Positions 397 to 15,730 of a stretch of DNA of 64,000 nt are shown piece after piece. The stretch is taken from the NCBI GenBank assembly GCA_964527425.1, contig CAZGOA010000002.1, positions 5,000 to 68,999 of the forward strand, in the 5' to 3' direction. Each line of letters starts with the position of its first letter. Position 1 is the first letter of the stretch. The notes beneath the pieces are model-generated. The model was not told the DNA's origin, ran no database searches, and worked only from the letters and a program-made list of their open reading frames with translations. The position numbers and the translations under genes are program-made. Origin of the DNA: an uncultured Gammaproteobacteria bacterium (lineage in GTDB: Bacteria > Patescibacteriota > Microgenomatia > UBA10105 > UBA927).

Positions 397-1734
397 ATGG
401 GTACATTGTATAAAAAGAAAACCGGCTTCAGTATGGTAGAGACGATTGTCGCTATTGGAGTCTTTTCTATTTTCTTTGCTGCTATTGCGTTTATCCTGCA
501 GCAAGTATTAGAAAACGTTGGAACAGCTAGAGTAAGAGCTGTAGCTCTCTCTCTAGGACAAGAAAAAATGGAAGTTATTCGAAATCTTCCATACGATAAT
601 GTAGGTACTATCGCTGGAATACCATCTGGTCCTCTGCAACAGTCAGAAATCGTCACTATTAACTCAACACCGTTTACTGTCACCACATCTATTTTTTATA
701 TAGATGACCCTTTTGATCAAAGTGCTCCAACTGATCCAATCCCTGCTGACTATAAACGTGTCCGAGTTCAAGTAACCTGGGGAGGTCTTTTTCCTTCTCG
801 ATCACCCGTTACCCTTGTTACAAATATTGTTCCAAGAGGGCTTGAATCAAATCCTGGAGGAGGTACGCTTATTATCCAAGTGCTCAATTCGCAAGGATTA
901 CCCTTATCAAATGCAAACGTTGCTATTACAAATACTCTGGTAGTACCGCAAATTAATATTTCTACATTAAGTGATGCCTCTGGATTTGTTGTTATACCGG
1001 CTGCTCCAGCATGCATAACCTGCTATTCTATTACTGTTAGTCGGTCAGGGTATTCGACAGATAAAACATATACTACCAGTGAAGTCGCCAATCCGCTCCA
1101 GCCACTTACCACCATTATTGAAGGAGAAATTACACAAGTGTCTTTTTCTATAGATCAGATAGGTAGTATTTCTATTAGTTCGCGAAGCACGCAGGAAACT
1201 GGCTATATTCCACTAACAAACGTTATTTTTACATTAAGAGGTAGTAAAATTATAGGATATGATACGCTAGATAAACCAGTATATAAATACTCTCAACAAT
1301 TTACGACTGGAGGAGGTACTGTAGGTGTTCCTAATTTGGAGTGGGATACTTATACGGTTGATCTAACTGATTCAAACTATACACTTGCAGGTTCTAATCC
1401 CTTAAACCCAATTACTGTTTTACCTGGTGTATTTAATACTCCAATGACTATATTAGCAGATCCTAAATATGCTTCTTCTCTTTTGGTTACTATTAAAGAT
1501 AATTTAAATCAATTATTAGCTTCTGTATCTTCAACGTTAAAAAATAGCACCACCGGGACGGAAATAACGAAAATTACTGCTGCAACCGGTTCTGCAAATT
1601 TTGGACAAGTCTTTTATAACAATTTAACGCTCGGGAACTATACAGTTACGGCATCGTTGTCGGGATATCAAGTTGCAAGTCAATCTGTAACAATAAATGG
1701 TAATCAACAATTGCAAATGGTCTTGAATCCTTAA
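397..1734 (+). CDS. Large (445 aa) prepilin-like protein with class III signal (type IV pilin/pseudopilin family)
   Basis: N-terminus KKTG|FSMVETIVAIGVFSIFFAAIAF has the prepilin cleavage/methylation motif (G-1, F+1, E+5) followed by a hydrophobic helix. The Ser/Thr-rich body is far longer than canonical pilins. Confidence 0.65.
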   Translation: MGTLYKKKTGFSMVETIVAIGVFSIFFAAIAFILQQVLENVGTARVRAVALSLGQEKMEVIRNLPYDNVGTIAGIPSGPLQQSEIVTINSTPFTVTTSIFYIDDPFDQSAPTDPIPADYKRVRVQVTWGGLFPSRSPVTLVTNIVPRGLESNPGGGTLIIQVLNSQGLPLSNANVAITNTLVVPQINISTLSDASGFVVIPAAPACITCYSITVSRSGYSTDKTYTTSEVANPLQPLTTIIEGEITQVSFSIDQIGSISISSRSTQETGYIPLTNVIFTLRGSKIIGYDTLDKPVYKYSQQFTTGGGTVGVPNLEWDTYTVDLTDSNYTLAGSNPLNPITVLPGVFNTPMTILADPKYASSLLVTIKDNLNQLLASVSSTLKNSTTGTEITKITAATGSANFGQVFYNNLTLGNYTVTASLSGYQVASQSVTINGNQQLQMVLNP

Positions 1735-1738
1735 ATTC

Positions 1739-2395
1739 ATGCAGTATGACTTGAATATGAAATATCTTTTACACACTAACAGTCATAGAAAATCAACACA
1801 TGGATTTACCTTTGTTGAGGTAATTATTGCTGTATTTTTATTTACTGTCATTGTTGCATTAACGTCAGGTTTTGTTGTGTATTATTTCAGTAATTATTCA
1901 TTTACTTTTGAACAGCAGCAGCAGGTTGGTCAAGCACAATCTGCTCTAACACAGATGATTCGGGAAATACGGAAAGCCCGACCTGGAGACGATGGTTCCT
2001 GGCCATTAGTTCAAACAGATGATGCTGTATTTATCTTTTATGCTGATGTAAATGGTGATAACCGCAGTGACAGAGTTCGCTATTTTTTAAGTGGCAACGA
2101 ACTAAGAAGAGGAATTATTCAACCCACTGCAGTACCAGTTACGTATCCTGTTGCAAATGAAGTAATTACAACACTTATGACCTCTGTTGAGGCAACTTCT
2201 AGTCCAATTTTTCGATACTACAACGGCGATTGGCCTGCGGATACAACCAATAATCCACTCTCACCTGCTAACAGAATACTGAATACTCGATTCGTTAAAA
2301 TAGATGTAAGATTGAACCAAACAACAAATTTTGCTGCTGAACCGTTTGAATTAAGCAGTGGAGTGAGTATTAGAAGTATGAAAAACAACTTATAA
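1739..2395 (+). CDS. Minor pilin/pseudopilin with prepilin-type N-terminal domain
   Basis: HG|FTFVEVIIAVFLFTVIV motif. The gene starts 4 nt after the upstream pilin stop. An alternative start at 1757 (MKYLL) is possible. Confidence 0.6.
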   Translation: MQYDLNMKYLLHTNSHRKSTHGFTFVEVIIAVFLFTVIVALTSGFVVYYFSNYSFTFEQQQQVGQAQSALTQMIREIRKARPGDDGSWPLVQTDDAVFIFYADVNGDNRSDRVRYFLSGNELRRGIIQPTAVPVTYPVANEVITTLMTSVEATSSPIFRYYNGDWPADTTNNPLSPANRILNTRFVKIDVRLNQTTNFAAEPFELSSGVSIRSMKNNL

Positions 2396-2398
2396 ACT

Positions 2399-3811
2399 AT
2401 GAAATACAAAACATCAACATCAGGCAATAATAATTTCAAGAATATATATGCCGGTAGTATTTCAATATTAGTTCTTGTGTTTGGATTGATGTTTTCTGTC
2501 GCTATTGGTGGACTAGTCATTGTTGCAGAAGTTCAGCAGAATAATGCATATAGAACTGATATTTATGAACGAGCATTAACGGTAGCTCAGGCAGGTGCCG
2601 AGTATTATCGCTGGCATCTTGCTCATGCACCCACAGATTATACTGATGGTACTGGACAACCTGGACCATATGTCCACCCTCTTTCTGATCCATATGGCCA
2701 AACTGAAGGAACGTTTAGTTTAATGATTACTCCACCGGCTGCAGGCTCTTCTAACATAACCATTGAGTCTACTGGCTGGTTAAATAGCAATCCTGAAATA
2801 AAACGTAAAGTTATTGCTCGATATGGTATACCTTCTCTTGCAAGATTTTCTTTTCTCCATAATGCTAATGTATGGTTTGGTTCTGGATTAACTGTTCAGG
2901 GACCAGCATTATCCAATGGTGGAATTCGTATGGATGGGGTGAATATATCTACAATTCAAAGTGCCAGACAAACGTATACTTGTGGTACAGAAACAGGTTG
3001 TTCTCCTTCACAAATACGGAATGGCGTATGGGGGTCTGGGGGTCCATCTAATTTATGGCAATTTCCTGTTCCAGCTGTCGATTTTAATAGTTTAAATCTT
3101 GATTTCAGTACTATGAGAACTGCAGCTCAAGCGAATGGATTATATTTGCCAGCTTCGGGTAGCTTGGGATACAGAATCCAATTTCAATCAAATGGTAATT
3201 ACACTGTAAGACGAGTAACAAATGCTACGAGCAGATCTGGTTGGAGCGTTGAGAATGGATGTCAAAGCTTAGCGCAAGACATTACGAATTCTGTCAATGT
3301 TGGTACTTATTCAATTGCTCAAAGACCTATTATTTTTGCTGAAGACAATTTATGGGTTGAGGGTGTAGTTAATGGTAAAGCAACTGTAGTTGCTGCACGT
3401 TTTCCCTTAAATGTTAACTTTATGAATATTTGGATAACCAATAACTTAACCTACGTTGCAAAAGATGGTCATTCCAATCTTGGTCTGTTTGCCCAAAATA
3501 ATATTTATTTTGGACTGAATGTACCAGAAGATTTTGAAATCAATGCTGCACTACTTGCATCTCAAGGCAGAATAATCCGTCATAATTATCGTTACTCAGG
3601 ATGTAGTTATTATTCTGCAGCTGTAAAAGACAACTTAACGATTTATGGGTCTGTAATTAGTAATCAAAAATCATATTGGAATTTTGGTACTGGTCCAACA
3701 TCTGGATTTAGAGAACGCTTAATCACCTATGATAGTAACTTATATTTTGATGCTCCACCTTACTTTCCTGATCAAGGTGAATATGAATTTATATCCTGGA
3801 CGGAAGAATAA
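2399..3811 (+). CDS. PilX-like minor pilin/pilus assembly protein
   Basis: N-terminal TM helix followed by QQNNAYRTDIYERALTVAQAGAEYYRW, as in PilX_N domains. It lies 3 nt after the previous stop, in the same operon as the two prepilins. Confidence 0.45.
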   Translation: MKYKTSTSGNNNFKNIYAGSISILVLVFGLMFSVAIGGLVIVAEVQQNNAYRTDIYERALTVAQAGAEYYRWHLAHAPTDYTDGTGQPGPYVHPLSDPYGQTEGTFSLMITPPAAGSSNITIESTGWLNSNPEIKRKVIARYGIPSLARFSFLHNANVWFGSGLTVQGPALSNGGIRMDGVNISTIQSARQTYTCGTETGCSPSQIRNGVWGSGGPSNLWQFPVPAVDFNSLNLDFSTMRTAAQANGLYLPASGSLGYRIQFQSNGNYTVRRVTNATSRSGWSVENGCQSLAQDITNSVNVGTYSIAQRPIIFAEDNLWVEGVVNGKATVVAARFPLNVNFMNIWITNNLTYVAKDGHSNLGLFAQNNIYFGLNVPEDFEINAALLASQGRIIRHNYRYSGCSYYSAAVKDNLTIYGSVISNQKSYWNFGTGPTSGFRERLITYDSNLYFDAPPYFPDQGEYEFISWTEE

Positions 3812-3968: not shown

Positions 3969-5177
3969 TTATCTTCCTGCAGCTTGTTGGAAATTACCAA
4001 CGACACTATAAATAGGAGCAATAATTGAGAGAATCATGACTCCGACTGCAACTCCTACTAATAACATCATGACTGGCTCTATGATTTGTGTTAATCCTTT
4101 AACCTCTTCTTCTACTTCTCCTTCATAAAAGGTAGCAAGATCTGCCATTGTACTATCTATTGTTGCGGTTTTCTCCCCCGCTGCTATCATTTGCACGACT
4201 AAGGATGGAAATACTTTTTGTTCTTTCATAGAACTGGCAAGCGTTCGACCTTTGCGTATTTGCTCTGGAATTGTTATTTTTAAGTTTCTATAATCTTTCC
4301 AGCTTAATAGTGAGAGCGATATTTCGAGTGCATCGGTAATGGGAACAGCACTTTTCATGAGTGTTGAAAAAATTCTTGAAAACCGTGCTAAATCTATTTT
4401 TTGAATGAGCCTTCGAATAAATGGGATTAATCCTAACGCACTCAATAACATGTCTCTTACTTGTTGCGATCGTAATGCAAAAAACCCACCAATAAGAGAT
4501 AGAACAGTTAACATAACAACTGGTATTATTTGTTTTGAAAAAGCAATACTAAGAGTAAACAGTAATCTGGTAGGAGCTGGAAGCGGCAGATTTAGGCTTA
4601 AAAATACTTTTCCGATTGAGGGCAACACGAAGAAAAACATGAGAATACCCATTCCGATCATCGCTACAAATATTATTGCAGGATACATCATTGCACCCTT
4701 AACTTTTGATGCAAGACTATACTCAGCACGCAGTTCTATTTCTAATTGCGTAAACACTTCAGCTAATTTTCCACTAATTTCGCCTGCTCTGACCAAAGTT
4801 AAAAAATATGATTCGAACACACCTGGATATTTTTCAAATATTTCTGATAACTGTTGACCTTGTTGTAATCCATATTGCATATCTTCCAATATTTTTTTCA
4901 TAACTGGATTTTTCGTTTCTCTGGAAAGCACATCAATTCCTTCTGAAAGCGATAATCCTGTTGAAAGCATAATACCCATATACCGACAAAAGGTAATTTT
5001 ATCTACAGCAGGAACTGTACCGTGCATTTGAACATTATCGATGTTTTCTTTAATAACTACGGGAGTTAAACCTTGTTTAGTCAATGAACTGGCAACTTCT
5101 TCTTTAGTTTTGGCAGAAACTACACCTTCTGTAAGGTGTTTACTACTGTCTACTGCTTTATATTTAAATGAAGCCAT
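3969..5177 (-). CDS. pilC: Type IV pilus inner-membrane platform protein PilC (GspF family)
   Basis: N-terminus MASFKYKAVDSSKHLTEGVVSAKTKEEVASSLTKQGLTPV is canonical PilC. GspF-repeat architecture with TM segments. Confidence 0.85.
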   Translation of the reverse strand: MASFKYKAVDSSKHLTEGVVSAKTKEEVASSLTKQGLTPVVIKENIDNVQMHGTVPAVDKITFCRYMGIMLSTGLSLSEGIDVLSRETKNPVMKKILEDMQYGLQQGQQLSEIFEKYPGVFESYFLTLVRAGEISGKLAEVFTQLEIELRAEYSLASKVKGAMMYPAIIFVAMIGMGILMFFFVLPSIGKVFLSLNLPLPAPTRLLFTLSIAFSKQIIPVVMLTVLSLIGGFFALRSQQVRDMLLSALGLIPFIRRLIQKIDLARFSRIFSTLMKSAVPITDALEISLSLLSWKDYRNLKITIPEQIRKGRTLASSMKEQKVFPSLVVQMIAAGEKTATIDSTMADLATFYEGEVEEEVKGLTQIIEPVMMLLVGVAVGVMILSIIAPIYSVVGNFQQAAGR

Positions 5178-5198
5178 AACAAGTTACATTAGAATTTC

Positions 5199-6875
5199 TT
5201 ACTCACGAACAACACGCAATACTTCCTCTATGCTTGTTAAACCGCCACTTGCTTTATTCAACCCATCACGTAAAAGTGGAGTCATTCCATTTCGCATTGC
5301 TTCTCTGGCAATTTCTTCTGAAGGTACTTTTTGAATGATCAATTTTCGAATTTTTTCGTTCACTTCCAGAATTTCAAAAATTCCTATTCTCCCTTTATAC
5401 CCCCTTCCCCCACATTCTTGACAACCTATCCCTTTGTAGAGTGTTTGCGGAACTTGCCATTCTGGTGCAATTTTTTGTAAATATTCGACTTGTTCTGATG
5501 GCAAAGTATAACTTTGAATACATCTCGTACACAATTTTCGAACAAGTCGTTGTGCAATAATTAAATTTAATGTTGAAGCAAGTAAGAATCCTTCGGTTCC
5601 CATATCTGTAAATCGAGGAATTGCGCCCGCGGCATCATTTGTATGAAGTGTTGATAACACCAAATGACCTGTAAGCGATGAGTGTATCGCCATTTCTGCA
5701 GTTTCTGTATCACGAATTTCTCCAACCATGATAATATCTGGATCGTGACGCAAGAGAGCTCTTAAGCCTGCTGCAAAGGTTAATCCTGCTGCTGTATTTA
5801 TTTGTGTTTGATTTACTCGTTTAATGCCATATTCTACAGGATCTTCTATAGTACACATTTTTACTTCTGTTGAATTGAGCATTGTCAAAACGCTATAGAG
5901 AGTTGTTGTTTTTCCTGATCCTGTTGGACCAGTGACGAGAATCATTCCGTGAGGTTTTACGATGTTTCTATTTACTAATTCTAAATTAAATCCAGTAAGG
6001 CCTAACTCTTCAAACGAAAGTGGACGTGCTGATTCTGCTAAAATTCGAAGTACAATATTTTCTCCGTAAAACGATGGCAAAATAGACACACGCAGTGCAA
6101 TATAGCTTTCTTTAATTTTAAATTTAAACCTTCCGTCCTGAGGTATTCGGTGTTCATCAATTTTAAGTTGCGAGAGTATCTTAATACGCGCAATAATTGC
6201 CGGATGGATCATTTTAGGTAGCTCAACAATATCTCTTAATACTCCATCTATACGAAATCTCGTCACAAATGATTCTTCCATTGCCTCAAAATGAATATCT
6301 GAAGCACCTTCTGCTACTGCATATTCTAAAACAGTATCAAGAATTCTAATTACGGGCAGATCAAGTGCCATCTTTTCACTATCTCTTCCAGCTTTTTGAC
6401 TTTCCTGAAGATTTTCTTTAATAATCTTGTCGAAAACCTCTTTTATGTTTCTTTTATATTGTCCTATGGCTTTTGTAATATCGGTATACCGGGAATATGA
6501 TATTTTTAATTTATAACCTGTTTTTCGTTTAACAAACTCTTTTGCTTCAAGATCTGAAGGGTCATCCATTGCAAGTGATAATTCATTTCCTGATAGTTCA
6601 TAGGGAATCATTTTAAACGTAGCTGCCGCTTCTTCTGGAATAAGAAGAAGCACCTCTAGAGGAATTGTTTTGTGTGATAAATCAATAAATGGAACCTTAT
6701 AATATTCTGCAATTAAGTTCCCTAAAATGTCTTCTGTTAAAAACCCTTTATATGCTAAAACGTCTGCAATATCTTTCTTGAGTTCTGTCGCAGATTTTAC
6801 TGCAGTGTCATAATCTTCTGAAGATACAAATCCAGATTTTACAACGATTTCACGTAATTGAGCAGCAGAAAGCAT
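5199..6875 (-). CDS. pilB: Type IV pilus assembly ATPase PilB (GspE family)
   Basis: Walker A LVTGPTGSGKTTTLYS, the GEIRD motif and a tetracysteine CTRC...CQECGGRGYKGRIG zinc motif. There is a 21-bp gap to pilC. Confidence 0.9.
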   Translation of the reverse strand: MLSAAQLREIVVKSGFVSSEDYDTAVKSATELKKDIADVLAYKGFLTEDILGNLIAEYYKVPFIDLSHKTIPLEVLLLIPEEAAATFKMIPYELSGNELSLAMDDPSDLEAKEFVKRKTGYKLKISYSRYTDITKAIGQYKRNIKEVFDKIIKENLQESQKAGRDSEKMALDLPVIRILDTVLEYAVAEGASDIHFEAMEESFVTRFRIDGVLRDIVELPKMIHPAIIARIKILSQLKIDEHRIPQDGRFKFKIKESYIALRVSILPSFYGENIVLRILAESARPLSFEELGLTGFNLELVNRNIVKPHGMILVTGPTGSGKTTTLYSVLTMLNSTEVKMCTIEDPVEYGIKRVNQTQINTAAGLTFAAGLRALLRHDPDIIMVGEIRDTETAEMAIHSSLTGHLVLSTLHTNDAAGAIPRFTDMGTEGFLLASTLNLIIAQRLVRKLCTRCIQSYTLPSEQVEYLQKIAPEWQVPQTLYKGIGCQECGGRGYKGRIGIFEILEVNEKIRKLIIQKVPSEEIAREAMRNGMTPLLRDGLNKASGGLTSIEEVLRVVRE

Positions 6876-6935
6876 GAATTCAATGTTGTTTGTAAAAAGT
6901 ATGCTACTTTGTAACCATGGATACTGTTTTACAAA

Positions 6936-7307
6936 CTAATTTGGTTTTACATAGGATTTAATTTTATTAACCAATTCGGTGGGGGAGATATTTGCTTTCG
7001 TTATAAATTCTGTTGCTCCTACATCAAGGGCTCGTTTTGATTCTGCTTCTTGTGCAAGATTGGAATACATTATGATTGGAGTATTTTTAAACTGTTCTTC
7101 AGCACGCAGAGTTTCAATAACTGTAAAACCATCTACTTTAGGCATCATAACATCTAATAATATTAAATCCGGACGTTCCTTTTCTGCTAATTCAATACCT
7201 TTTTCTCCATCTTCTGCAGATACTATTTCATACCCATCTGCTTTCAGACGAGTTGTATATATTTTTACAATTAAAGAATCATCTTCTACTAATAAAATTT
7301 TTGCCAT
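6936..7307 (-). CDS. Stand-alone response-regulator receiver domain (CheY/PilH-like)
   Basis: MAKILLVEDDSLIV...LILLDVMMPKVDGF...; no output domain. The start was moved to the internal Met (MAKILLV); the track ORF extends to 7355. Confidence 0.8.
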   Translation of the reverse strand: MAKILLVEDDSLIVKIYTTRLKADGYEIVSAEDGEKGIELAEKERPDLILLDVMMPKVDGFTVIETLRAEEQFKNTPIIMYSNLAQEAESKRALDVGATEFITKANISPTELVNKIKSYVKPN

Positions 7308-7377
7308 ATTACTTTTAAACAATACAAAGATACAAACTTTATAAACTTTTTTCAAACATACTTCGTATTATACATAG

Positions 7378-9507
7378 TTATTTAACAATCGGCAGAGTGA
7401 AATAGAATGTAGTTCCTTTCCCAACCTCTGAATCTAACCAGATACTTCCTCCAAGACCTTCAATAATTTTTTGAGATAGATACAGTCCTAATCCTGTTCC
7501 TCCATATGTTTTTGTATACTTTTGATCTCGTTTTACTTGAGAAAACTTTTTAAACAACAGATCAAAGTCTTCTTTATGAATACCTGTTCCTGTATCTTTG
7601 ACCTGGGTTACTACCATACCATCTTTTACTTCCGTTTTTATGGTGATACCGCCTTCAGAAGTAAACTTAAGTGCATTACTAATTAAGTTAATAACCACTT
7701 CTTTTATTTTATCTTCATCTGCAATGACTAATGGAAGCTCTCCTACTTGCTCATAGGTTATGTATAAATGTTTTTCTTTTACAGCAAGTTTTAAGTTTTT
7801 GACAACATCAGCAATAAGCTCACTTAACTGTACATGAGAAAGCGTAAAAGATAACTTGCCTGATTCTATTCGAGAAGTATTAAGTAAATTATTGACTAGA
7901 CGAATAAGTCGATCATTTTCATTGTATGCTGCAGTTAAAAATTCTCTTGAATCGTTAGAGATTGGTCCTGCATAACCCTCAAGAATTGTGGAAATTGAAC
8001 CTTTGATTGCAGCCATGGGTGTGCGCAACTCATGAGAGGCTAAAGATACAAATTCATCTTTTAATTTGTCTAGTTCCTGAAGTTGACTATTTGCTTCTTT
8101 CAGTTCTTTCGTCGCTTTTTCTACTTCTTCTTGAAGTGTAATATTAAAACGCCTTATTTCTTCATATGACCTTGCATTTTGAAATGCTATTGCAGACTCA
8201 CTTGCTAAAATTGATATGACACTCAAATCTTGTTCAGTAAAAATATCTCCTGATTCTTTTTGACCCAGTATAAAATATACTCCCAGTTCTGTCTCAGTTT
8301 TTAATTTTACCAAAATATAGATACCATACTTAATAAATAATTCTTTTACATTTCCTTCGGAAATTTCATCAAATATTTGCAGTTTGCTTTGGATACTCTG
8401 TAATAACTCAAAATCATCTTCAGACATATCTGAAACCACTTGGAAGTTTTTGTGATATGTTTGATGGATATTATTCTTTGCCAGAAGAAGTACAGCACTC
8501 TTAGTAATTTTTAAACTTTTTTCAAGTTCATTAAAGAGAGCCCCCGTCATATCTTGCAGATTTAGCGTCCCTGCCAATATTTTGCTAATTTCACTTAAAA
8601 CCTTGTCGCTGTTATAACTATTTTTGTAAAAAATTCTACTGGATACCGATTCAAATAATTTTCGAAGAGGTGTGAATGTAAACGAAGCAACAAACGTTAG
8701 AGAGATTAGGGTTGCAAATTGAATCTGTGTCAGTGATAAATCAACTAATATTGTACCAAATCCAATAACTAATAATGAATATAGTATACCAATTACTACC
8801 AACACCAAAACAAATGACACTGCCCTTACAATTATCAACCGAATATCCATGAGTCTATGTCGAATAATTGCATATGATGTGAATCCAACTAACAATAACG
8901 TGGCAGCAGGACTAAAGAAGCCAAATCTGCTTATTCCTACTGCAGGCAAAATGACACCAGTTAGTGTTACAGCAAACAAGAAAGAAAAAAATCCAAAAAA
9001 TAAAAATTTGATTTGGTTTCTTGGTCTCCCTGTACTATTTCGAAACTTTTTAAAAAGTGTAACACTACCGAATATTGCTCCAAATACTGACCATAACATT
9101 AATAGTGGATATAACACACCTAAAACCGGTTGTATTTGATCAAAGTCAGAATTTATTCCTGAAACAAATGGATGAAATGGAGTAAGAATAAGAAATAGGG
9201 CAACTGGTATTACACAAAAATAAATTAAATATTTTATGTTTAACTTGTGGCCCTCAGGAAAATGTTTAGAAAACAATATAAAACTGCTTACGCCAAAAAG
9301 ATTTCCAAAAAACAAAGTTAAATCACTCCAGAATAAGGTCTTAAACGTAAACAAGAATCCAATAGATAGTGTCCATAAAGATAGTGTTCCAGCAAAAAAA
9401 ACAAAACTTTTATTTACCCAACTATGTGAATTCCGTTGATAAACAATCAGTGCGAGAATAAAATTTATGAGAGCGATACCACCTACAAACAGTAAAAAAG
9501 GATTCAT
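7378..9507 (-). CDS. Sensor histidine kinase: polytopic N-terminal membrane domain, GAF-like region, coiled coil, HisKA, HATPase_c
   Basis: H-box SHELRTPMAAIKG. G-boxes DTGTGI...GGTGLGLYLSQ. About 8 predicted TM helices in the first 250 aa. Confidence 0.85.
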   Translation of the reverse strand: MNPFLLFVGGIALINFILALIVYQRNSHSWVNKSFVFFAGTLSLWTLSIGFLFTFKTLFWSDLTLFFGNLFGVSSFILFSKHFPEGHKLNIKYLIYFCVIPVALFLILTPFHPFVSGINSDFDQIQPVLGVLYPLLMLWSVFGAIFGSVTLFKKFRNSTGRPRNQIKFLFFGFFSFLFAVTLTGVILPAVGISRFGFFSPAATLLLVGFTSYAIIRHRLMDIRLIIVRAVSFVLVLVVIGILYSLLVIGFGTILVDLSLTQIQFATLISLTFVASFTFTPLRKLFESVSSRIFYKNSYNSDKVLSEISKILAGTLNLQDMTGALFNELEKSLKITKSAVLLLAKNNIHQTYHKNFQVVSDMSEDDFELLQSIQSKLQIFDEISEGNVKELFIKYGIYILVKLKTETELGVYFILGQKESGDIFTEQDLSVISILASESAIAFQNARSYEEIRRFNITLQEEVEKATKELKEANSQLQELDKLKDEFVSLASHELRTPMAAIKGSISTILEGYAGPISNDSREFLTAAYNENDRLIRLVNNLLNTSRIESGKLSFTLSHVQLSELIADVVKNLKLAVKEKHLYITYEQVGELPLVIADEDKIKEVVINLISNALKFTSEGGITIKTEVKDGMVVTQVKDTGTGIHKEDFDLLFKKFSQVKRDQKYTKTYGGTGLGLYLSQKIIEGLGGSIWLDSEVGKGTTFYFTLPIVK

Positions 9508-9512
9508 ATAAT

Positions 9513-10220
9513 TCAGTCTTTTTTAGTAAGAACCAATAAATAACTTTGCATATATGTTTCTTTAATAGATATTGACTTTATATTAAGATTTTTTACCATC
9601 TCTTCCCATTCTTCTTGAGAAAGAAAATGGAAACCTTTATTGTTTGCTTTTAATTTAATAATCAAATTGAAAAAAAATAAGGGAAGTGTAATAAAAAACA
9701 TTTTCACCTTCGCAAATCCCTTAACTGAATTAATAATTTCAAAATATGCTGCAGTAAATTTTGCTTTTGAGTGAGGATTAACTATCACTAATGTACCTCC
9801 CGGTTTTAAAACTCTCAATAATTCTGAAACAGTAAAAGCCGGATTACTTACAGCATATATCGAATTAATTGCAACAATACTGTCAAAATAATTCTTCTCT
9901 AAAGGTAGCTTATCATTTACACTTGCCAAAAATAAACGCATATTTGTAAAAGAACCTACTTTTTTTCTGGCTTTTGATAACATAACCTTTGAGATATCAA
10001 TTCCTACATACTCACCAAGTTTATCTTTTGCTACAAGCTCCATAAAATTACCAGTACCGCATCCCACATCTAATACACGTATGTTGGGCTTAACTAAGGC
10101 ACCCTTTTTAACATCTTGTAACAAATGTTGATATGGAGGGAGCAAACGAACTAAATCGTATACATGAGCGTATATTTGCCAAAATATTTCACTTCGTTGG
10201 TTTTTCATCTTTATCTCCAA
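9513..10220 (-). CDS. Class I SAM-dependent methyltransferase
   Basis: Motif I VLDVGCGTGNF and post-I acidic motif (VGID). It lies 5 bp from the HK start and 4 bp from the upstream gene. Confidence 0.8.
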   Translation of the reverse strand: MEIKMKNQRSEIFWQIYAHVYDLVRLLPPYQHLLQDVKKGALVKPNIRVLDVGCGTGNFMELVAKDKLGEYVGIDISKVMLSKARKKVGSFTNMRLFLASVNDKLPLEKNYFDSIVAINSIYAVSNPAFTVSELLRVLKPGGTLVIVNPHSKAKFTAAYFEIINSVKGFAKVKMFFITLPLFFFNLIIKLKANNKGFHFLSQEEWEEMVKNLNIKSISIKETYMQSYLLVLTKKD

Positions 10221-10224
10221 GCTG

Positions 10225-11748
10225 TTATTTTTTTACCCATTTTTGTTTTACACCTGGTCGAAAATACGTTGGATCTTCATAGGGCCAAAAAACTAAATTA
10301 GGAATTAATTGCTTAGAATATTCTTCATATGTTTTTCTATACTCAGAATTTTCATTTAATAAATAATATACTAGTTTTTCGATAATTTTATCTTTCACTG
10401 AATCCTCCATAGACATATCTTTTTTCATTTCTATGTGAATTATGAGTTGTTGATTTGCATTATCATCATACAACACTTGCATAGTAAACTTACCAGTAAT
10501 AAACGACTCAAATAATTCTTCCTGCAGTGCTCTTCTAATTGTTTCAGGATATATTTGAAATGCAAAGAAACTTACAGAAAAATCACTTCTTTCATACACG
10601 TATACAAAAGGTAACTTCCATATTGTGTCCTGTAAATGTCTCTTTCTCATTTCTTCCACGATATCTATTCCCATATCTTGGAGTTTACTAACAATATGAG
10701 AATACTTTCTAACTCCTCCGTTGTCTTTTAAATCATATCGTATGAGTGGTAGTCCACTGTACGCAGAACAATACAAACTACTATCAACATCCTCAAAATA
10801 AAATTGTGAGGGATTATATTGTGTCAATGTAGGTAATTTTAGGATTTGATCAAAAAGAAGAGCATATACAGATTTATTTTCCATTCCCAGTCTTCTTAAT
10901 AATACACATAGGGGTGTTTCATGGGACATTGTTCCCAAATCTACAGTACCATAATGATTCAATGTATCGACATATATATTTTTTAACCCAGTTTTCTTCT
11001 GAACATAGTCTCTAAATGATTCACTAAATGCTTCAGCAGAAAAAACAAAACCCATATTTAACTGCTTCCATTGTAATCCGTAGCGTTCACCCTCATCTAA
11101 GATATCCTTTAAAAAAGGTCCATAACTACCAATAATAATCTGATCAAATGACGATCCTAAATTTTGAACTGCTTTAATAATTTCAAGTTTATTAATTCCA
11201 GGAGTAATGATACTTAAATTATATATTCCCTTTTGTTGAATCATCGACAGTGCTTTATAAGTAAATACTCCTCCTATCCAAGCGCCCATTGGAAATCCCA
11301 CTATATATAACGTTGATCTTTCTTGAATCTTAAAATTTGTACGTAAATATAACTCTGCAGTATATGCATATTGCAAATCCTGCTCTTCTTGTCGAGGAAA
11401 ATAAAACGGATCACCTGTTGATCCTGAAGTTGTTGATATTATCCATTGAGAAGTAGAAAATTTCCCATCCCAACATAACATTTCTCTGGGATACTGACGC
11501 AGATAACTTTGCTTATCAATCGGCGGAACATGCTCAAAATCTTCTATTGTTCGTATTTTTGTGTGATCAATATGCTTTTTTTGAAGGAAATCTTTATATG
11601 CAGGAACTCTAAGAGCCATTAAATGAAATAATTCAAGTACTGAAGTTTCACCCTTACGCAACCAATACTCCTCAGATTCAGTTAGTAATGCTTGTTCTAT
11701 GGTTAGAACATCATCCTGTAAAAAAGGTGATTTGTATTTCATATCCAA
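10225..11748 (-). CDS. Adenylate-forming enzyme of the PaaK/CapK/F390-synthetase or GH3-like type
   Basis: TSGSTGDPFYFP matches the SSGTTGKP AMP-binding loop of phenylacetate-CoA-ligase-like enzymes. The N-terminal ...RVPAYKDFL...IEDFEHVPPIDKQSYLRQYP resembles the PaaK/GH3 N-domain. Length is 507 aa. Confidence 0.6.
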   Translation of the reverse strand: MDMKYKSPFLQDDVLTIEQALLTESEEYWLRKGETSVLELFHLMALRVPAYKDFLQKKHIDHTKIRTIEDFEHVPPIDKQSYLRQYPREMLCWDGKFSTSQWIISTTSGSTGDPFYFPRQEEQDLQYAYTAELYLRTNFKIQERSTLYIVGFPMGAWIGGVFTYKALSMIQQKGIYNLSIITPGINKLEIIKAVQNLGSSFDQIIIGSYGPFLKDILDEGERYGLQWKQLNMGFVFSAEAFSESFRDYVQKKTGLKNIYVDTLNHYGTVDLGTMSHETPLCVLLRRLGMENKSVYALLFDQILKLPTLTQYNPSQFYFEDVDSSLYCSAYSGLPLIRYDLKDNGGVRKYSHIVSKLQDMGIDIVEEMRKRHLQDTIWKLPFVYVYERSDFSVSFFAFQIYPETIRRALQEELFESFITGKFTMQVLYDDNANQQLIIHIEMKKDMSMEDSVKDKIIEKLVYYLLNENSEYRKTYEEYSKQLIPNLVFWPYEDPTYFRPGVKQKWVKK

Positions 11749-12797
11749 CCAAATTGTTTCATTCTATCTTCTGCCATGGTATTTGAGACGAGTAAGGGAG
11801 AGATAGAAAGTTCTTTACTTTTTGTCATGATTAAATCTACATTTTTTGAAATTGCTTGTGGGATATTTTTTATTTTTTCATCTTGAGAATCGACAAGCTC
11901 ATATTCGTTTACGACCGCCATTAAACCACCTGCATTTACAACATAATCTGGAAGATAATATATTCCTTTATTAAATAATGAATCCGCTATGGCATCGGAT
12001 GACAATTGACTATTGGCAGAACCGATTATCATTTTACACTGCAATTGAGGTGCAGTTTCTTCGTTAAGAATATTACTTAGGGCACAGGGAGAAAAAATAT
12101 CTACAGGAACTGAATAAATTTCATGCTGATTCACTACATGTATGTGTGGGAACTGTTGTTGTATTTTTTCAAGCATCGCAATATTGATATCGGTCACATA
12201 AATATCTTTTAGTTCGCTTGCTAGTTTTTCTAACACTCCAAAACCAATTTTTCCAAGTCCCTGTATTGCCATTGTTCTGTCATGTAATCTTTCATCAGAG
12301 AATACATGCTTACAACCAACTCGAATAGCTGCTATGAGCCCATCGATCGTATATGCAATCGGATCTGTCTTTATCCCCATAATATACGACGATTGACCTG
12401 CAAGTTGTTGTAATTCTTCTATAGTCATACCCACGTCGGCACCAGTTATGAATAATCCACGTAGTTCATTGACAATATCTGCATATACTGATATCCAATC
12501 TGAACGAAAAGGATTATTTGAATCTCTTAACATGATTGCTTTTGCTCCTCCGTATTTATATCCAGCCATAACAGATTTATATGTCATAATCCGTGAAAGT
12601 TTTAAAGAATCTTGTACTGCATCTTCGACATTTGGATATTGCCATATTCTGGTTGCTCCAAAGTATGGATGCATTGAATCATTTTTATGGAGCGCTATAT
12701 ACACGGAAAGATTCGTTGGCTTGTGCACATAATGAATTACACCTTTGTGTCCATTCCATTCTTTATATTCTTCTATGGATAAAGTATTTGAACTCAT
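11739..12797 (-). CDS. Leu/Phe/Val-type amino-acid dehydrogenase (Glu/Leu/Phe/Val DH family)
   Basis: Aligns by eye along its full length to Bacillus LeuDH: catalytic-Lys motif GGAKAIM, GADVGMT, Rossmann GLGKIGFG, DIFSPCAL, IGSANSQL, PDYVVNAGG. Overlaps the downstream gene by 10 bp. Confidence 0.85.
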   Translation of the reverse strand: MSSNTLSIEEYKEWNGHKGVIHYVHKPTNLSVYIALHKNDSMHPYFGATRIWQYPNVEDAVQDSLKLSRIMTYKSVMAGYKYGGAKAIMLRDSNNPFRSDWISVYADIVNELRGLFITGADVGMTIEELQQLAGQSSYIMGIKTDPIAYTIDGLIAAIRVGCKHVFSDERLHDRTMAIQGLGKIGFGVLEKLASELKDIYVTDINIAMLEKIQQQFPHIHVVNQHEIYSVPVDIFSPCALSNILNEETAPQLQCKMIIGSANSQLSSDAIADSLFNKGIYYLPDYVVNAGGLMAVVNEYELVDSQDEKIKNIPQAISKNVDLIMTKSKELSISPLLVSNTMAEDRMKQFGWI

Positions 12798-12865: not shown

Positions 12866-13236
12866 TCTAGCACTCGGGCTCTTGCCTTGCCTTTGGCAGG
12901 GAGGAAAGTCCAGACAGCAGTATGCAGGGGACTCAGCGCAAGCTGTGTTTCACTCACTATAAGTGGGTGAAAAGGTGCTTTATTCTTGAAAAAGAATAGA
13001 GACGATGACTGAATTAACACTCTGAGAGAGTTACAGAGACGATCCTTTGACTACTTTTAAGCTTAAGCTGCCGCTTGAGTTTGAGAATGTTGAAGGGGTG
13101 AAACGCTAACAATCCCACCTGCTGCAACCGGCGACTGTTCTGCAAAAAACCGACGCATACCGGAGTCAGAACGAAGCATACGGGCATTAGATGAATAAGA
13201 GCAATAAAACAGAATCTGGCTTATGAGGTGCTAGAA
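12866..13236 (+). ncRNA. rnpB: RNase P RNA, bacterial type A
   Basis: P1 stem 5' TCTAGCACTCGG pairs with 3' TGAGGTGCTAGA. Universally conserved GGGAGGAAAGTCCAGAC (P4 5' strand), AAGGGGTGAAACGC, and 3' ACAGAATCTGGCTTATGAGGTG (P4 3' strand). About 371 nt. Confidence 0.85.
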
Positions 13237-13463
13237 TTATTAATTATAATTATTCTACTTAGATATAATTCCAATTTCTCCTGTAAAGGAATATATTTCG
13301 GCAATACAAATTTCGCTATTTACCCAATATTGACTTACTTTTGAGAATGTTTGATAAGTCCACGGGTCTGCAATATGAAACATATTCGTATCATATCCGT
13401 TGATACTTGCAGCGTGTCAATCCGCATTACCTTTAATATCAAGATATTTTATTCAATAGGAAT

Positions 13464-14749: not shown

Positions 14750-15730
14750 TTATTCTTCTGTTTCTTTTCTGTATTCGAGAAGATTAGTTACAACAACTTG
14801 AATAACTAAGATTGCCGGAATGGCTAAAATGGCTCCTACTACACCTGCAAATCTAGCTCCAATCATGAAGGCAACGATGGTAATAATTGGTGAAAACCCA
14901 ACTGCTTTTCTCATAATGAGCGGGACTATTAAATGATTTTCAAACTGTTGAATCACAAAATACATTGCTGCAACCGATACAGCAAGAATAGGATTAACTG
15001 TTAAGGCGATTAAGACTGCTGGAACTGCAGAAACAATAGGCCCTATCATAGGAACTAATTCGAGTAAACCTGCTAATACAGCAAGTGGTAAGGCGTATTC
15101 TATTTTAAGTATTACTAAACCGATATATACCATAACACCAATCACAACCATAAGAATGAATTGACCTCTAGCCCATGCTCCTAATTTCCCTTCAACATCT
15201 TGGAGTGCGCTGTGAATTCTATCTCCTGTTTCTTCATTGGTAAATTGTTTCAATGTTTGTTTTAGTGTGTTTCTTGATAATAATAAATAGAGAGTGAATA
15301 CAAGAATTGTGACAATGTTAATGATATTGTTAAATACTTCTACGCCAACTCTTAATATATTTTGTGTAATTGGAGCAATCTCTTGTGTTATTGCTTGGAT
15401 ATTTATATCTAGAGCAGGGATTACTCGTTCGGCTAAACTGGGAAATTCTTGAATTAAACGATTTGACTGTGATGCGATACTAGGTATTGATGATGCTACA
15501 ATTCCACCCAATCCACCAAAAATTAGTATATACATTAGTAGAACAGCCATCACTCTTGGAATTTTTAAGTTAACTAATCCTTCTACCAAAGGACGCAGTG
15601 CTGTCATTAATATGTAGGAGATAAAAAGTAAATATAAAATGTCACGAATTTGTAGTACTAACCAAATACCTCCAAGAAGTACCAAAATAAAGATAATTGT
15701 TCGATGAGAAATTTCAATAGTTCTGGGCAT
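14750..15730 (-). CDS. AI-2E family transporter (PerM/YdiK-like permease)
   Basis: Polytopic membrane protein with the conserved C-terminal LELVPMIGPIVSAVPAVLIAL signature region of UPF0118/AI-2E. Confidence 0.55.
   Translation of the reverse strand: MPRTIEISHRTIIFILVLLGGIWLVLQIRDILYLLFISYILMTALRPLVEGLVNLKIPRVMAVLLMYILIFGGLGGIVASSIPSIASQSNRLIQEFPSLAERVIPALDINIQAITQEIAPITQNILRVGVEVFNNIINIVTILVFTLYLLLSRNTLKQTLKQFTNEETGDRIHSALQDVEGKLGAWARGQFILMVVIGVMVYIGLVILKIEYALPLAVLAGLLELVPMIGPIVSAVPAVLIALTVNPILAVSVAAMYFVIQQFENHLIVPLIMRKAVGFSPIITIVAFMIGARFAGVVGAILAIPAILVIQVVVTNLLEYRKETEE

Follow-up and report, generated by a model that had tools for sequence, protein, structure and literature searches.

Several bacterial signalling systems pair an autoinducer synthase with a sensor kinase that is polytopic in the membrane (CqsA/CqsS, LuxM/LuxN and AgrBD/AgrC), and in the agr and com pherotypes a change of biosynthetic specificity goes hand in hand with a change of sensor domain. 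A second body of work concerns oxazolones, made by OxzAB in Pseudoalteromonas rubra and by TyzACB and TrzAS in Mycobacterium tuberculosis (Rv2336-2338c, Rv1355c-1356c), where Rv1355c is TrzS, a cyclase-oxidase that produces an N-acyl tryptazolone (PMC12856293; also PMC10404671; bioRxiv 10.1101/2020.06.11.147165); these compounds have been suggested, though never shown, to act as signals (PMC12856293; bioRxiv 10.1101/2020.06.11.147165). CheY-like receivers that act on the pilus ATPase PilB are documented in Synechocystis (PMC11181946; bioRxiv 10.1101/2021.06.11.447907; review PMC11656802), and a PEP-CTERM/exosortase-associated acyltransferase (TIGR03694) accompanies the transmembrane kinase PrsK (PMC1569441).

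The locus described here lies in a 64-kb stretch of DNA (‘the window’) and has its closest known parallels among these systems. We read it as a modular signalling unit built of three separately inherited layers, in which the product of a biosynthetic cassette would cue a kinase with a pilus motor as its output, a reading to which, on sequence comparison, we give a little less than an even chance.

Organization of the gene string

Seven open reading frames, all on the minus strand, were found where the original prediction had drawn them, and all seven gene identities that it had proposed (dehydrogenase, adenylating enzyme, methyltransferase, histidine kinase, receiver, PilB and PilC) were borne out by Pfam, NCBIfam, PDB and structure matches. 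The claim of tight, co-directional packing also held when junctions were taken from the start codons of public gene calls and read off the sequence: the dehydrogenase and ligase genes overlap by 4 nt (ATGA), followed by gaps of 16 nt between ligase and methyltransferase (with a GGAG 5' of the methyltransferase ATG at 10208), 5 nt between methyltransferase and kinase, 70 nt between kinase and receiver, 60 nt between receiver and pilB, and 21 nt between pilB and pilC. The identical seven-gene order recurs on 24 or more contigs that are independent and stem from different samples; about 170 related loci made up the comparison set. Since the ligase has its relatives exclusively in Patescibacteria MAGs, the source bacterium is taken to be CPR-like, with a small genome.

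The string is bounded downstream by convergent pilin genes and upstream by a previously unseen gene for a divergent and reduced RNase P RNA (12866 to 13239, plus strand), which fills a former 667-bp ‘gap’. It matches Rfam RF00010 over its full length (60.5 bits, E 7e-18) and is missed at the gathering score of 100; its position implies that the string starts within ~68 bp of the dehydrogenase ATG. Neither promoter-like matches (36, against 43.3 +/- 6.8 in shuffles) nor terminator-like matches (3, against 4.1 +/- 2.2) exceeded the shuffled expectation, and the terminator scan, uninformative overall, placed none at a gene junction. A -10-like hexamer, TATAAT, lies 6 nt past the kinase stop codon (7367 to 7372, minus strand), and the motif (A/G)TGTATAATA is kept at the equivalent position in L002 and L090 as well as in the window; L091 lacks it. 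The hexamer hints at a candidate internal promoter for the receiver, pilB and pilC genes, whose transcription may thus be uncoupled from that of the enzyme genes.

The first enzyme and its ligase

The string opens with an amino-acid dehydrogenase of 352 residues (11739 to 12797, minus strand), assigned through Pfam, NCBIfam and the PDB to the LeuDH/PheDH/TrpDH branch of the ELFV family, and its expected membership of that family was confirmed by PF00208 and PF02812. Its top NCBIfam match is Trp_DH_ScyB (242 bits), and in the PDB it matches LeuDH 6ACF and TrpDH 5B37 at ~192 bits each. The equivalents of the catalytic residues K68, K80 and D115 are invariant among 29 CPR orthologues, the position of LeuDH A113 is Gly in all 29, and that of V291 is Leu in 24, both as in TrpDH 5B37. 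This ‘first enzyme’ probably yields a 2-oxo acid from an amino acid whose side chain is bulky or aromatic.

In CPR loci the ligase is preceded by an amino-acid-deaminating enzyme, which may be a dehydrogenase, an aminotransferase or an aromatic ammonia-lyase. Of 74 loci, 68 have next to it a dehydrogenase (present in 32 loci) or an aminotransferase of a divergent class I/II type (39 loci); an aromatic ammonia-lyase fills the slot in L089 and L090, and an Asn-synthase with a DHQS-like gene does so in L091.

The ligase itself (10225 to 11742, minus strand; 505 residues from the ATG at 11742, in a frame reaching upstream to a TTG at 11748) was recognised as a PaaK-fold adenylate-forming enzyme from structure and profile matches, a Pfam search having returned zero matches. 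The proposed relationship to PaaK stood at the level of fold and failed at that of family models: the AF2 model (pLDDT 87) matches PaaK1 structures 2Y27/2Y4N by Foldseek (E 3e-21, TM 0.65-0.78) and the profile matches PaaK-like 4R1L in the PDB (E 4e-6), but the ligase reaches 20 bits with the PaaK HMM TIGR02155, for which the cut-off is 646. The P-loop TSGSTG and the C-terminal K501 are invariant. With scores so far under the PaaK cut-offs, the product may still be a CoA thioester instead of an amide.

Judged by identity, the window ligase falls in the CPR subtype whose partner is a dehydrogenase or an aminotransferase and which is highly conserved. It is 55-63% identical to all ligases with either partner, the same range that these show among themselves; PAL-linked ligases share 54% identity with one another and 29-36% with the dehydrogenase type, close relatives included. 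The ligase subtype tracks the first enzyme across CPR loci. Its 57-67% identity across CPR classes is unusual conservation for a secondary-metabolite enzyme.

An exchangeable tailoring slot

The third gene encodes a class I SAM methyltransferase of 231 residues (9513 to 10208, minus strand, by Pfam; frame open to 10220) that ends in a conserved hydrophobic segment. Its orthologues are rare, being found only in L007, L085, L086 and L087 at 40-57% identity. The best solved relative by sequence is LahSB (57 bits, Rossmann core only), a carboxylate O-methyltransferase (PMC11285071); the specificity of the window enzyme cannot be read from its sequence.

The slot that this enzyme occupies, between ligase and kinase, is in most cases taken by a ThiF-like cyclase plus a flavin oxidase (FDO), together with an alpha/beta hydrolase. 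The dehydrogenase, ligase and methyltransferase had been presented as a ‘triad’, and this set is not a fixed one: the methyltransferase is a rare substitute for cyclase, oxidase and hydrolase, holding the slot in six loci (the window and five others). In most loci the ThiF-like gene overlaps the 3' end of the ligase gene by 15 nt, and the L007 methyltransferase gene has the identical overlap. The ThiF/FDO fusions match the NCBIfam ‘Rv1355c family’ (272-342 bits) and the FDOs the ‘Acg family’ (169-217 bits), so that the usual occupants of the slot are homologous to TrzS, the oxazolone synthase of mycobacteria; ThiF and FDO genes are absent throughout the 64 kb of the window.

In L088 a non-orthologous methyltransferase (19% identity) sits in the slot beside a kinase with the same 7TM subtype as the methyltransferase-type kinases. 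Distant methyltransferase relatives in metagenomes lie directly 5' of HisKA_7TM/GAF kinases, and beside such pairs are found FeeM/LuxI-like N-acyl amino-acid synthases in L098 and L100, PlsC-like or LuxD-like acyltransferases in L098, L112 and L114, and in L117 a fused ThiF domain. The FeeM-like proteins score 50-60 bits against TIGR03694 (cut-off 112), and exosortase context was seen around none of their loci. The metagenome loci lend independent support to a recurrent pattern of acyl conjugate, methyltransferase and 7TM kinase.

A chimeric sensor kinase coupled to the ligase

In 58 of the 59 CPR loci with enough flanking sequence, a same-strand kinase lies no more than 6 kb downstream from the ligase; these loci span many CPR classes, and their outer flanks differ (murD, folD, pgk, eno and others). 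HisKA_7TM is carried by 63 of 66 ligase-linked kinases, among them that of the window (7378 to 9507, minus strand; HisKA_7TM, HisKA and HATPase_c by Pfam).

Its two ends have different histories. The N-terminal 7TM sensor (residues 1-217; 8857 to 9507, minus strand), with seven TM helices in the AF2 model, belongs to a ‘methyltransferase-type’ lineage: only the kinases of the other five methyltransferase-cassette loci come close to it (53-71% identity), and it forms a clade with them (bootstrap 100/100); the 74 others are at most 32% identical. The DHp and catalytic core (residues 471-709; 7378 to 8097, minus strand; HisKA, HATPase_c) belongs to a ‘PilB-linked’ lineage, being 62-67% identical only to L090, L002 and L091 (again bootstrap 100/100) and at most 49% identical to all others. 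Between them lies a cytoplasmic GAF-like domain (residues ~300-420; 8248 to 8610, minus strand), recognised from the match of the AF2 model to PDB GAF domains and divergent from both parental lineages; Pfam GAF is undetected in the window kinase and matches about half of its full-length homologues. The window kinase is thus a chimera whose sensor half tracks the enzymes and whose output half tracks the pilus motor.

The suggestion that the cassette produces a metabolite sensed by the adjacent kinase gains support from the conserved adjacency and from the co-variation of the 7TM sensor with the tailoring enzyme. The joint inheritance of methyltransferase and 7TM domain could nonetheless be a by-product of physical adjacency, as recombination anchored in the conserved 3' end of the ligase gene and in the kinase core would swap all that lies between, whatever its function. 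Co-variation is also expected of proteins that interact physically, and the kinase may, though this is unlikely, be blind to the product, with the two-component system targeting or partnering the enzymes, or with the 7TM domain acting as a membrane scaffold or exporter for the tailoring enzyme and the kinase responding to some unconnected external stimulus. The hydrophobic C-terminal segment of the methyltransferase could dock at the membrane or the 7TM domain, and an HTH/MmyB-like regulator near the L086, L087 and L090 modules could control the enzyme genes; against this, the receiver has no DNA-binding output and so cannot directly regulate them, and 7TM kinases also adjoin unrelated acyl-transfer and soluble enzymes, an arrangement that a shared ligand class fits better than a shared docking surface.

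CPR genomes are dense and co-directional, the promoter and terminator scans were uninformative, and there may be an internal promoter 3' of the kinase gene, all of which would suit incidental neighbours, with dehydrogenase, ligase (and methyltransferase) engaged in ordinary amino-acid or aryl-acid metabolism beside a separate two-component/pilus unit. The persistence of ligase-kinase adjacency in CPR classes that diverged deeply and whose loci have unrelated outer flanks, and the co-variation of sensor with cassette and of ligase with first enzyme, make a merely incidental neighbourhood through genome compactness distinctly improbable.

The GAF fold raises a further reading, in which an aryl compound from the cassette is permanently bound by the GAF or 7TM domain and lets the kinase sense something else, for instance light or redox. 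TAL and a p-coumarate ligase supply the chromophore of photoactive yellow protein, benzylidene-oxazolones resemble the GFP chromophore, and L089 and L090 carry aromatic ammonia-lyase and ligase variants. However, the sensor region has no conserved Cys (the sole Cys of the kinase, C98, is in a TM helix), the alignments contain no invariant candidate attachment residue, and many CPR habitats are dark groundwater; such a supply role is accordingly given little credence.

The receiver and the pilus motor

The kinase gene is followed by that for a stand-alone CheY-like receiver of 123 residues without an output domain (6936 to 7307, minus strand; PF00072 only), the frame of which is open to 7355 and the start of which, 7307, is that of public gene calls. 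Nearly all module-linked receivers have 120-140 residues. It is 62-66% identical to the receivers of L002, L090 and L091 and 31-44% identical to those of methyltransferase-type loci. PilB (5199 to 6875, minus strand; MshEN, T2SSE 438 bits, TIGR02538 568 bits) and PilC (3969 to 5177, minus strand; two T2SSF domains) are 67-70% and 58-63% identical, respectively, to their counterparts in the same three loci. Two prepilin-like genes (N_methyl motif, Pfam) and a gene for a 470-residue protein of unknown family converge on the string (397 to 3811, plus strand); the three are arranged alike in L090 (56-67% identity), L002 and L038, and travel with pilB-pilC. Receiver, PilB, PilC and pilins group, as does the kinase core, only with three relatives that share the kinase-receiver-PilB-PilC order. 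The recurrence of that order, beside three different enzyme cassettes, supports the proposal of a sensory pilus-motor unit.

The expectation that the enzyme set would travel with pil genes did not survive, as most CPR lineages keep enzymes and kinase without them. PilB lies near the ligase module in 1 of 59 CPR loci, roughly chance level, and a pil gene adjacent to the module is absent in Saccharimonadia, Paceibacteria and others. Pilin-like genes occur 3' of the kinase in L086 and L088, and linkage to pil genes does not extend beyond a single sub-clade. The idea of pilus chemistry, raised at the outset, has the enzymes modifying the pilin by acylation, aminoacylation or methylation, or producing a ligand bound to the pilus. 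In its favour are the one co-directional string with pilB/pilC beside pilin genes, and pil genes close to the module in L002, L038, L088, L090 and L091. It is very improbable, because nearly all other CPR loci have the ligase module with a kinase and no pil genes, because L002, L090 and L091 keep very similar pil genes (pilins 56-67%, PilB/PilC 58-70%) beside entirely different cassettes (PAL or Asn-synthase for dehydrogenase, ThiF/FDO for methyltransferase, and, in the case of L090 and L091, a ligase of only 33-38% identity), and because the enzymes co-vary with the kinase sensor and not with the pilins.

A proposed signalling route

The modular signalling unit would operate as follows. In the first layer, the dehydrogenase would turn a bulky or aromatic amino acid into a 2-oxo acid, which the matched PaaK-fold ligase would adenylate and join to an acceptor, most likely giving a conjugate of the N-acyl amino-acid type; the ligase would thereby stand in for the acyl-CoA N-acyltransferases of other bacteria (OxzA, TyzA, TrzA, FeeM-like). 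In the second, the TrzS-like cyclase and flavin oxidase of most CPR bacteria would make this conjugate an oxazolone, and in the window lineage the methyltransferase that replaces them would probably cap the same carboxylate as a methyl ester. What was observed are the gene identities, the conserved adjacency, the three patterns of co-variation and the chimeric kinase; these substrates, the acceptor and the site of methylation we infer. The hydrophobic product, as putative kinase ligand, would be recognised by the matching 7TM sensor and possibly by the GAF domain as well. In the third layer, the kinase core would phosphorylate the receiver, which has no DNA-binding domain and hence would act by protein contact, most plausibly with PilB/PilC, so that pilus extension is gated. 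The pilus motor is the likely output in the clade of the window, and the whole suggests that a self-made chemical cue, probably derived from an aromatic acid, controls the pilus.

Comparison with known systems

Around the FeeM/LuxI-like synthases the three-part scheme recurs, with another enzyme doing the acylation: L098 and L100 place a FeeM/Autoind_synth-like protein between a methyltransferase relative and a HisKA_7TM kinase, in loci outside the window that are distant relatives only. With the phenylacetate-CoA ligase PaaK and the PaaK-fold non-CoA ligases (ClxA, BT_0428) and 2-hydroxyisobutyryl-CoA ligase, the window ligase shares the two-domain ANL fold, the P-loop and the C-terminal lysine, but it has ~15% identity and ~80 extra residues, and its locus has no paa catabolic genes; this context predicts a biosynthetic coupling reaction.

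The likeness to oxazolone pathways is closest in the CPR relatives, most of which have ThiF-like and FDO (nitroreductase superfamily) genes, adjacent or fused, directly after an acyl-activating gene; the oxazolones known so far are built from aromatic amino acids, and the pocket signature of the CPR dehydrogenases is of the aromatic type. The window differs in having a methyltransferase in place of ThiF/FDO, and CPR loci in general have the PaaK-fold ligase in the position of an OxzA/TyzA-type acyl-CoA N-acyltransferase. They further contain an amino-acid-deaminating enzyme and always a sensor kinase, and often have an alpha/beta hydrolase as well, none of which is mentioned in the cited oxazolone-pathway literature.

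On the output side, a receiver-only regulator beside pilB recalls PixG/PixH and the PATAN regulators of Synechocystis and PilG/PilH of Pil-Chp, and protein contact is the only output option for such a protein (PMC11181946; PMC11656802). The window receiver, however, has no PATAN domain, its contact with PilB is putative, and its input is a classical HisKA kinase and not a CheA-type chemosensory array.

From the autoinducer/kinase pairs the locus differs entirely in its enzyme families, in the GAF domain added to the kinase, and in an output that is a receiver beside a pilus motor instead of a transcription factor or phosphorelay; no sign of secretion or density dependence was seen. It resembles them in that biosynthetic genes adjoin a multi-TM histidine kinase, that the presumed ligand is hydrophobic, and that sensor and biosynthetic specificity shift jointly.

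The gene string and its borders

The seven minus-strand reading frames at 3969-12797 lie where originally predicted, and each belongs to the family first named for it: in order, an ELFV dehydrogenase, a PaaK-fold ligase, a class I methyltransferase, a HisKA_7TM histidine kinase (HK), a receiver (RR), PilB and PilC. (The first enzyme, the ligase and the tailoring enzymes are termed here the ‘cassette’ and, together with the kinase, the ‘module’.) Their tight packing was likewise confirmed (junctions of -4, +16, +5, +70, +60 and +21 nt, with starts taken from public gene calls), and the same seven-gene order is found on at least 24 independent contigs. A consensus scan found no terminators at the six junctions, and promoter and terminator consensus matches were not above those in shuffled sequence. 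Directly 3' of the kinase stop is a conserved motif of the (A/G)TGTATAATA / TGTATAAT type, which contains TATAAT and is found in three of four related loci (window 7367-7372, minus strand; locus L002, ~16815-16830; locus L090, ~12026-12038; absent from locus L091); judged by its sequence, it is a candidate -10 element of an internal promoter for RR, pilB and pilC, in which case the seven genes may not form a single transcript. The 60-nt gap between RR and pilB holds a perfect 10-bp inverted repeat, GTTTGTAAAA ... TTTTACAAAC (window 6927-6936 and 6888-6897, minus strand, with a 29-nt spacer), which is not kept in L090 or L091, both of which have short GC-rich hairpins of their own there.

The seemingly empty 667-bp gap upstream of the string is occupied by an RNase P RNA gene (rnpB, 12866-13239, plus strand), divergent and reduced, which matches Rfam RF00010 over its full length (60.5 bits, E 7e-18). 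A scan of the whole window at Rfam gathering thresholds returned no match, RNase P RNA emerging only at an E-value threshold, so that standard annotation would overlook the gene. Because the gap contains rnpB, the idea that small reading frames within it encode precursor peptides was rejected. A 38-aa frame in the public gene calls, located inside rnpB on the opposite strand (window ~13063-13179, minus strand; 7030-7146 in loci L081-L084), is almost certainly spurious.

At its downstream border the string meets three convergent pilin-type genes. An AI-2E family transporter gene (PF01594; window 14750-15730, minus strand) is found near the module, separated from the dehydrogenase by an M16 peptidase gene and rnpB; its counterpart in L002 (7748-8758) is directly upstream of the dehydrogenase. 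Such a transporter, which is not conserved near the module in loci beyond the window and L002, could from its family and position serve as an exporter for the cassette product. The window also contains a tRNA-Pro(GGG) gene (25129-25203) and, at 28000-64000, a run of reading frames, all on the minus strand, whose sizes and arrangement read as a ribosomal-protein cluster with RNA polymerase beta and beta' genes, a housekeeping context.

Enzymes of the cassette

The dehydrogenase carries both ELFV domains (PF00208 and PF02812), in keeping with the family first proposed for it, and its catalytic lysine (K80), substrate lysine (K68) and aspartate (D115) are invariant in 29 orthologues from Patescibacteria-type (CPR) bacteria; these features place it in the Leu/Phe/Trp dehydrogenase branch. 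Against LeuDH (6ACF) and TrpDH (5B37) alike it reaches about 192 bits, and it remains below the cut-off of the ScyB tryptophan dehydrogenase equivalog (NF035922; 242 bits against 600). At LeuDH positions 113 and 291 its pocket carries Gly and Leu, matching TrpDH, a pair that also separates PheDH from LeuDH.

Across 80 genomic loci from many CPR classes, in which all reading frames were compared, the slot upstream of the ligase is filled by a dehydrogenase in 32 loci and by a divergent class I/II aminotransferase in 39 (together 68 of the 74 informative loci), the aminotransferase being the first enzyme in Saccharimonadia. In other relatives the slot holds an aromatic amino-acid ammonia-lyase (loci L089 and L090) or an Asn-synthase with a DHQS-like gene (L091). 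Dehydrogenase, aminotransferase and ammonia-lyase alike turn an amino acid into a carboxylic acid that has lost its alpha-amino group.

The 507-aa ligase had no Pfam match (AMP-binding included), and its AlphaFold model (built with 30 homologues, pLDDT 87) matched PaaK1 in Foldseek (E 3e-21, TM 0.65-0.78); the match of GH3 enzymes, named beside PaaK originally, is far poorer (TM 0.46). The protein has an ANL two-domain fold with a P-loop, TSGSTG (residues 107-112), and a C-terminal lysine, K501, that are invariant in 30 sequences. It does not reach the PaaK equivalog cut-offs (TIGR02155, 20 versus 646 bits; NF041878, 26 versus 700 bits), and no paa catabolic genes were found among the conserved neighbours of the 80 loci.

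More than 1,700 relatives of the ligase were identified, the best 120 being 56-67% identical to it, apart from the window organism's own two 100% entries; among the matches listed, all that name an organism in their source come from CPR lineages. (An alignment-based scan of the genome collection recovered ligase loci; a single-protein scan with the ligase recovered none.) Ligases linked to a dehydrogenase or aminotransferase are 55-63% identical to one another, and the window ligase shares no more than 33-38% identity with those of the window's close relatives L090 and L091; by sequence identity, ligase subtype tracks the first enzyme and not organism relatedness. Across CPR classes, the ligase linked to a dehydrogenase or aminotransferase (window 10225-11742, minus strand) keeps 55-67% identity, versus 36-44% for the ThiF-like protein, 30-44% for the kinase and 35-43% for the dehydrogenase, and conservation so far above that of its partners is unusual for a secondary-metabolite enzyme.

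A ligase-kinase module across CPR bacteria

A same-strand histidine kinase lies within 6 kb downstream of the ligase in 58 of the 59 loci that extend at least that far, and HisKA_7TM is present in 63 of 66 module kinases; module-linked regulators are nearly all stand-alone receivers of 120-140 aa. PilB adjoins the module in one of 59 loci. CPR-wide, the ligase goes with the kinase and not with pil genes. Nor do dehydrogenase, ligase and methyltransferase constitute the fixed triad that had been envisaged: they are one variant of a modular cassette, in which other loci have an aminotransferase or ammonia-lyase, and a ThiF-like protein with a flavin-dependent oxidase (FDO). Since the outer flanks vary between lineages (murD, folD, pgk, eno and others), the adjacency of ligase and kinase is not mere synteny.

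Beside the ligase in three loci (L086, 5577-6689; L087, 1649-2776; L090, 1470-2270) are HTH_3 regulators with a (weak) MmyB-like ligand-binding domain, a domain family tied in actinomycetes to small-molecule autoregulators. Many loci with typical CPR gene content and synteny (L002, L007, L008, L013, L015, L029, L054 and others) come from metagenome-assembled genomes titled ‘uncultured Gammaproteobacteria bacterium’ or ‘Polyangiaceae’; these labels are probably wrong.

The tailoring slot

The slot held in the window by the methyltransferase contains a ThiF-like gene in at least 66 of the 80 CPR loci. In most loci the start of this gene overlaps the ligase stop by 15 nt and it is accompanied by an Acg-family FDO (169-217 bits) and often by an alpha/beta hydrolase, frequently as fusions; the ThiF-FDO fusions match the NCBIfam ‘Rv1355c family’ at 272-342 bits. 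Rv1355c is TrzS, by which N-acyl-tryptophan is cyclised and desaturated to an oxazolone (PMC12856293), and TyzBC and OxzB carry out the same chemistry on N-acyl-Tyr/Phe (PMC10404671; bioRxiv 10.1101/2020.06.11.147165). There, the gene ahead of the cyclase encodes an acyl-CoA N-acyltransferase; CPR loci have the PaaK-fold ligase in that position, and we infer that the ligase is the functional equivalent of the N-acyltransferase. No acyl-CoA/ACP-dependent amino-acid N-acyltransferase (OxzA/TyzA/TrzA fold) was found among the conserved neighbours of the 80 loci, and ThiF, FDO, hydrolase and aminotransferase are all absent from the entire 64-kb window (tblastn).

Orthologues of the window methyltransferase (40-57% identity) were found only in L007, L085, L086 and L087, of which L007 retains the overlap of 15 nt with the ligase gene; the methyltransferase that fills this slot in L088 is not orthologous. 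(A word-based homologue search had made the enzyme appear near-unique, which was misleading; more loci of this type were obtained through kinase relatives and a metagenome scan.) Its best PDB match, which is weak, is the carboxylate methyltransferase LahSB (PMC11285071). From the position of the gene, the analogy with the oxazolones and that weak match, the product could conceivably be a methyl-esterified aryl-2-oxoacyl (or related) conjugate, an assignment that we nonetheless consider unlikely.

Distant relatives of the methyltransferase in metagenomes (27-35% identity) are found directly upstream of HisKA_7TM/GAF kinases, with different acyl-transfer enzymes as neighbours: FeeM/LuxI-like N-acyl amino-acid synthases (metagenomic loci L098 and L100), PlsC-like acyltransferases (L098 and L112), a FadD-like ligase (again L098) and, fused to the methyltransferase, a LuxD-like acyltransferase domain (L114). 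With such varied acylating partners, the set of acylating enzyme, methyltransferase and 7TM kinase recurs outside the ligase context. L098 (5638-13602) contains tandem units, one consisting of the FadD-like ligase, a PlsC-like protein, a methyltransferase and a 7TM/GAF kinase, and another of a methyltransferase, a FeeM/LuxI-like synthase and a 7TM kinase. In L117 (561-1985) a 474-aa protein, encoded directly upstream of a 7TM-GAF kinase, has a ThiF domain fused to a methyltransferase relative and, as read from its domains, joins two alternative tailoring activities.

A chimeric sensor kinase

The window kinase matches PF16927 (47 bits), PF00512 (57 bits) and PF02518 (100 bits), and its phospho-acceptor, H492, is invariant. 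An AlphaFold model of residues 1-480 (pLDDT 87) displays seven transmembrane helices, two more long helices, a GAF-like domain and a long signalling helix; the middle region alone gave no Pfam match, and the GAF fold is assigned from that model and from the Pfam GAF matches of about half of the full-length homologues. Covalent attachment of a chromophore to the sensor was rejected, there being no conserved Cys.

When 80 module-linked kinases were aligned, the 7TM region of the window kinase (residues 1-225) proved to be 53-71% identical to those of the five other methyltransferase-type loci (L007 and L085-L088) and at most 32% identical to the other 74. Its core (residues 471-709), in contrast, is 62-67% identical to those of L090, L002 and L091 only, which are ThiF-cassette loci that also have the order HK-RR-PilB-PilC, and at most 49% identical to everything beyond them (42-45% for the methyltransferase-type kinases). 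A sliding window places the switch point at about residue 200 to 400, the stretch between being unlike both groups. In neighbour-joining bootstraps, the methyltransferase-type clade was recovered in 100 of 100 replicates on the 7TM region (computed with capped distances) and in 0 of 100 on the core, and the PilB-linked clade in 100 of 100 on the core and 0 of 100 on the 7TM region. RR (62-66% identity), PilB (67-70%), PilC (58-63%) and the pilin genes (56-67%) all follow the core. These alignments show the kinase to be chimeric, with an input module from one lineage attached to an output module from another.

With only six methyltransferase-type loci known, the correspondence between sensor and cassette may instead reflect neutral linkage: recombination with its end points in two conserved stretches, the 3' end of the ligase gene and the kinase core, would have replaced whatever lay between them. 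Functional coupling of the enzymes and the kinase is nevertheless regarded as highly probable; that the 7TM/GAF sensor has the cassette product as its ligand is, in our judgement, as likely as not.

Gene linkage to the type IV pilus motor

PilB consists of a T2SSE domain with an N-terminal MshEN-type domain, PilC has two T2SSF repeats, and pilin genes are located nearby. Both proteins miss the equivalog cut-offs (TIGR02538, 568 versus 675.65 bits; PilC models, 222-249 versus 700 bits), as is usual for divergent CPR proteins. Although pil genes are unlinked to the module CPR-wide, they are linked to it in the window's clade, where HK-RR-PilB-PilC is combined with three different cassettes (in the window, in L002 and in L090/L091). 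In L088 PilB-PilC lies on the other side, with the receiver divergently oriented; locus L038 has a pilus cluster 3 kb upstream; and L086 and L088 have pilin-like genes immediately after the kinase or receiver. Prepilin-motif reading frames occur downstream of the kinase in 7 of 79 loci, versus 1 of 79 for the upstream control, and this excess is partly incidental; in loci L014, L015 and L029 a pilin gene is situated between putative pgk and enolase genes.

The receiver has no output domain and so must act by protein contact, and CheY-like receivers that bind PilB are known from Synechocystis (PMC11181946; reviewed in PMC11656802). We lean towards the pilus motor as the target of the two-component output in the window's clade. 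Modification of the pilin by the triad enzymes, one of the functions suggested in the original prediction, is unlikely, because the pilins are similar while the cassettes differ. A chance linkage of the pil genes, suggested by the single PilB among 59 loci, was dropped once HK-RR-PilB-PilC was found again in the kinase's nearest relatives. On an unrelated contig (L104, 140-11486), a unit of OmpR-type regulator, methyltransferase, acyltransferase-like gene and GAF kinase is separated by 3-6 kb from PilB, two receivers and an MCP-like-PDC/HAMP kinase, so that here too a pilus motor ATPase is close to such a module.

A proposed signalling circuit and its relation to known systems

Most CPR bacteria have not been cultured; their genomes are tiny, and they need type IV pili to find and hold host cells; to our knowledge, almost nothing is known of their sensing and signalling. 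Tentatively, these bacteria might possess widespread and diversifying small-molecule signals of their own making. An aryl acid derived from an amino acid would be activated by the dedicated PaaK-fold ligase, tailored either to an oxazolone (by the ThiF-like cyclase and FDO) or to a methylated conjugate, and read by the cognate 7TM-GAF kinase; in the window's clade, the circuit would gate the type IV pilus motor, which serves in attaching to hosts or in taking up DNA. Should this hold, CPR bacteria would have their first described autoinducer-like system, and oxazolones a first physiological role.

The locus offers a candidate cue, receptor and effector encoded side by side in CPR bacteria, with a ligase-kinase core that is kept across many classes. 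Comparison of loci connects the oxazolone synthase enzymes, themselves a recent discovery, with a dedicated sensor kinase; genetic support of this type for a role in signalling is lacking in the mycobacterial and proteobacterial studies. The chimeric kinase marks the division between input and output specificity, which is useful for engineering and for ligand discovery.

Each component is of a known kind, whether the two-component system, the type IV pilus motor, the ANL ligase or the oxazolone-type enzymes of relatives. The novelty lies in the combination of enzymes and its coupling to a 7TM kinase across CPR bacteria, in the co-variation of three layers, in the chimeric kinase and in the wiring to a pilus motor. 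No literature linking Patescibacteria, these enzymes, kinases and pili was found, and the oxazolone preprint (bioRxiv 10.1101/2020.06.11.147165) makes no mention of Patescibacteria or histidine kinases. The window differs from the oxazolone pathway (OxzAB/TyzACB/TrzAS) in that it contains neither the ThiF cyclase nor the FDO, and no N-acyltransferase occurs among the conserved neighbours of the 80 CPR loci. With quorum-sensing synthase/receptor-kinase pairs the module shares both the adjacency of its parts (58 of 59 loci) and, across the six methyltransferase-type loci known, the co-variation of sensor and cassette; by analogy, its overall logic would resemble that of an autoinducer synthase paired with its receptor kinase.
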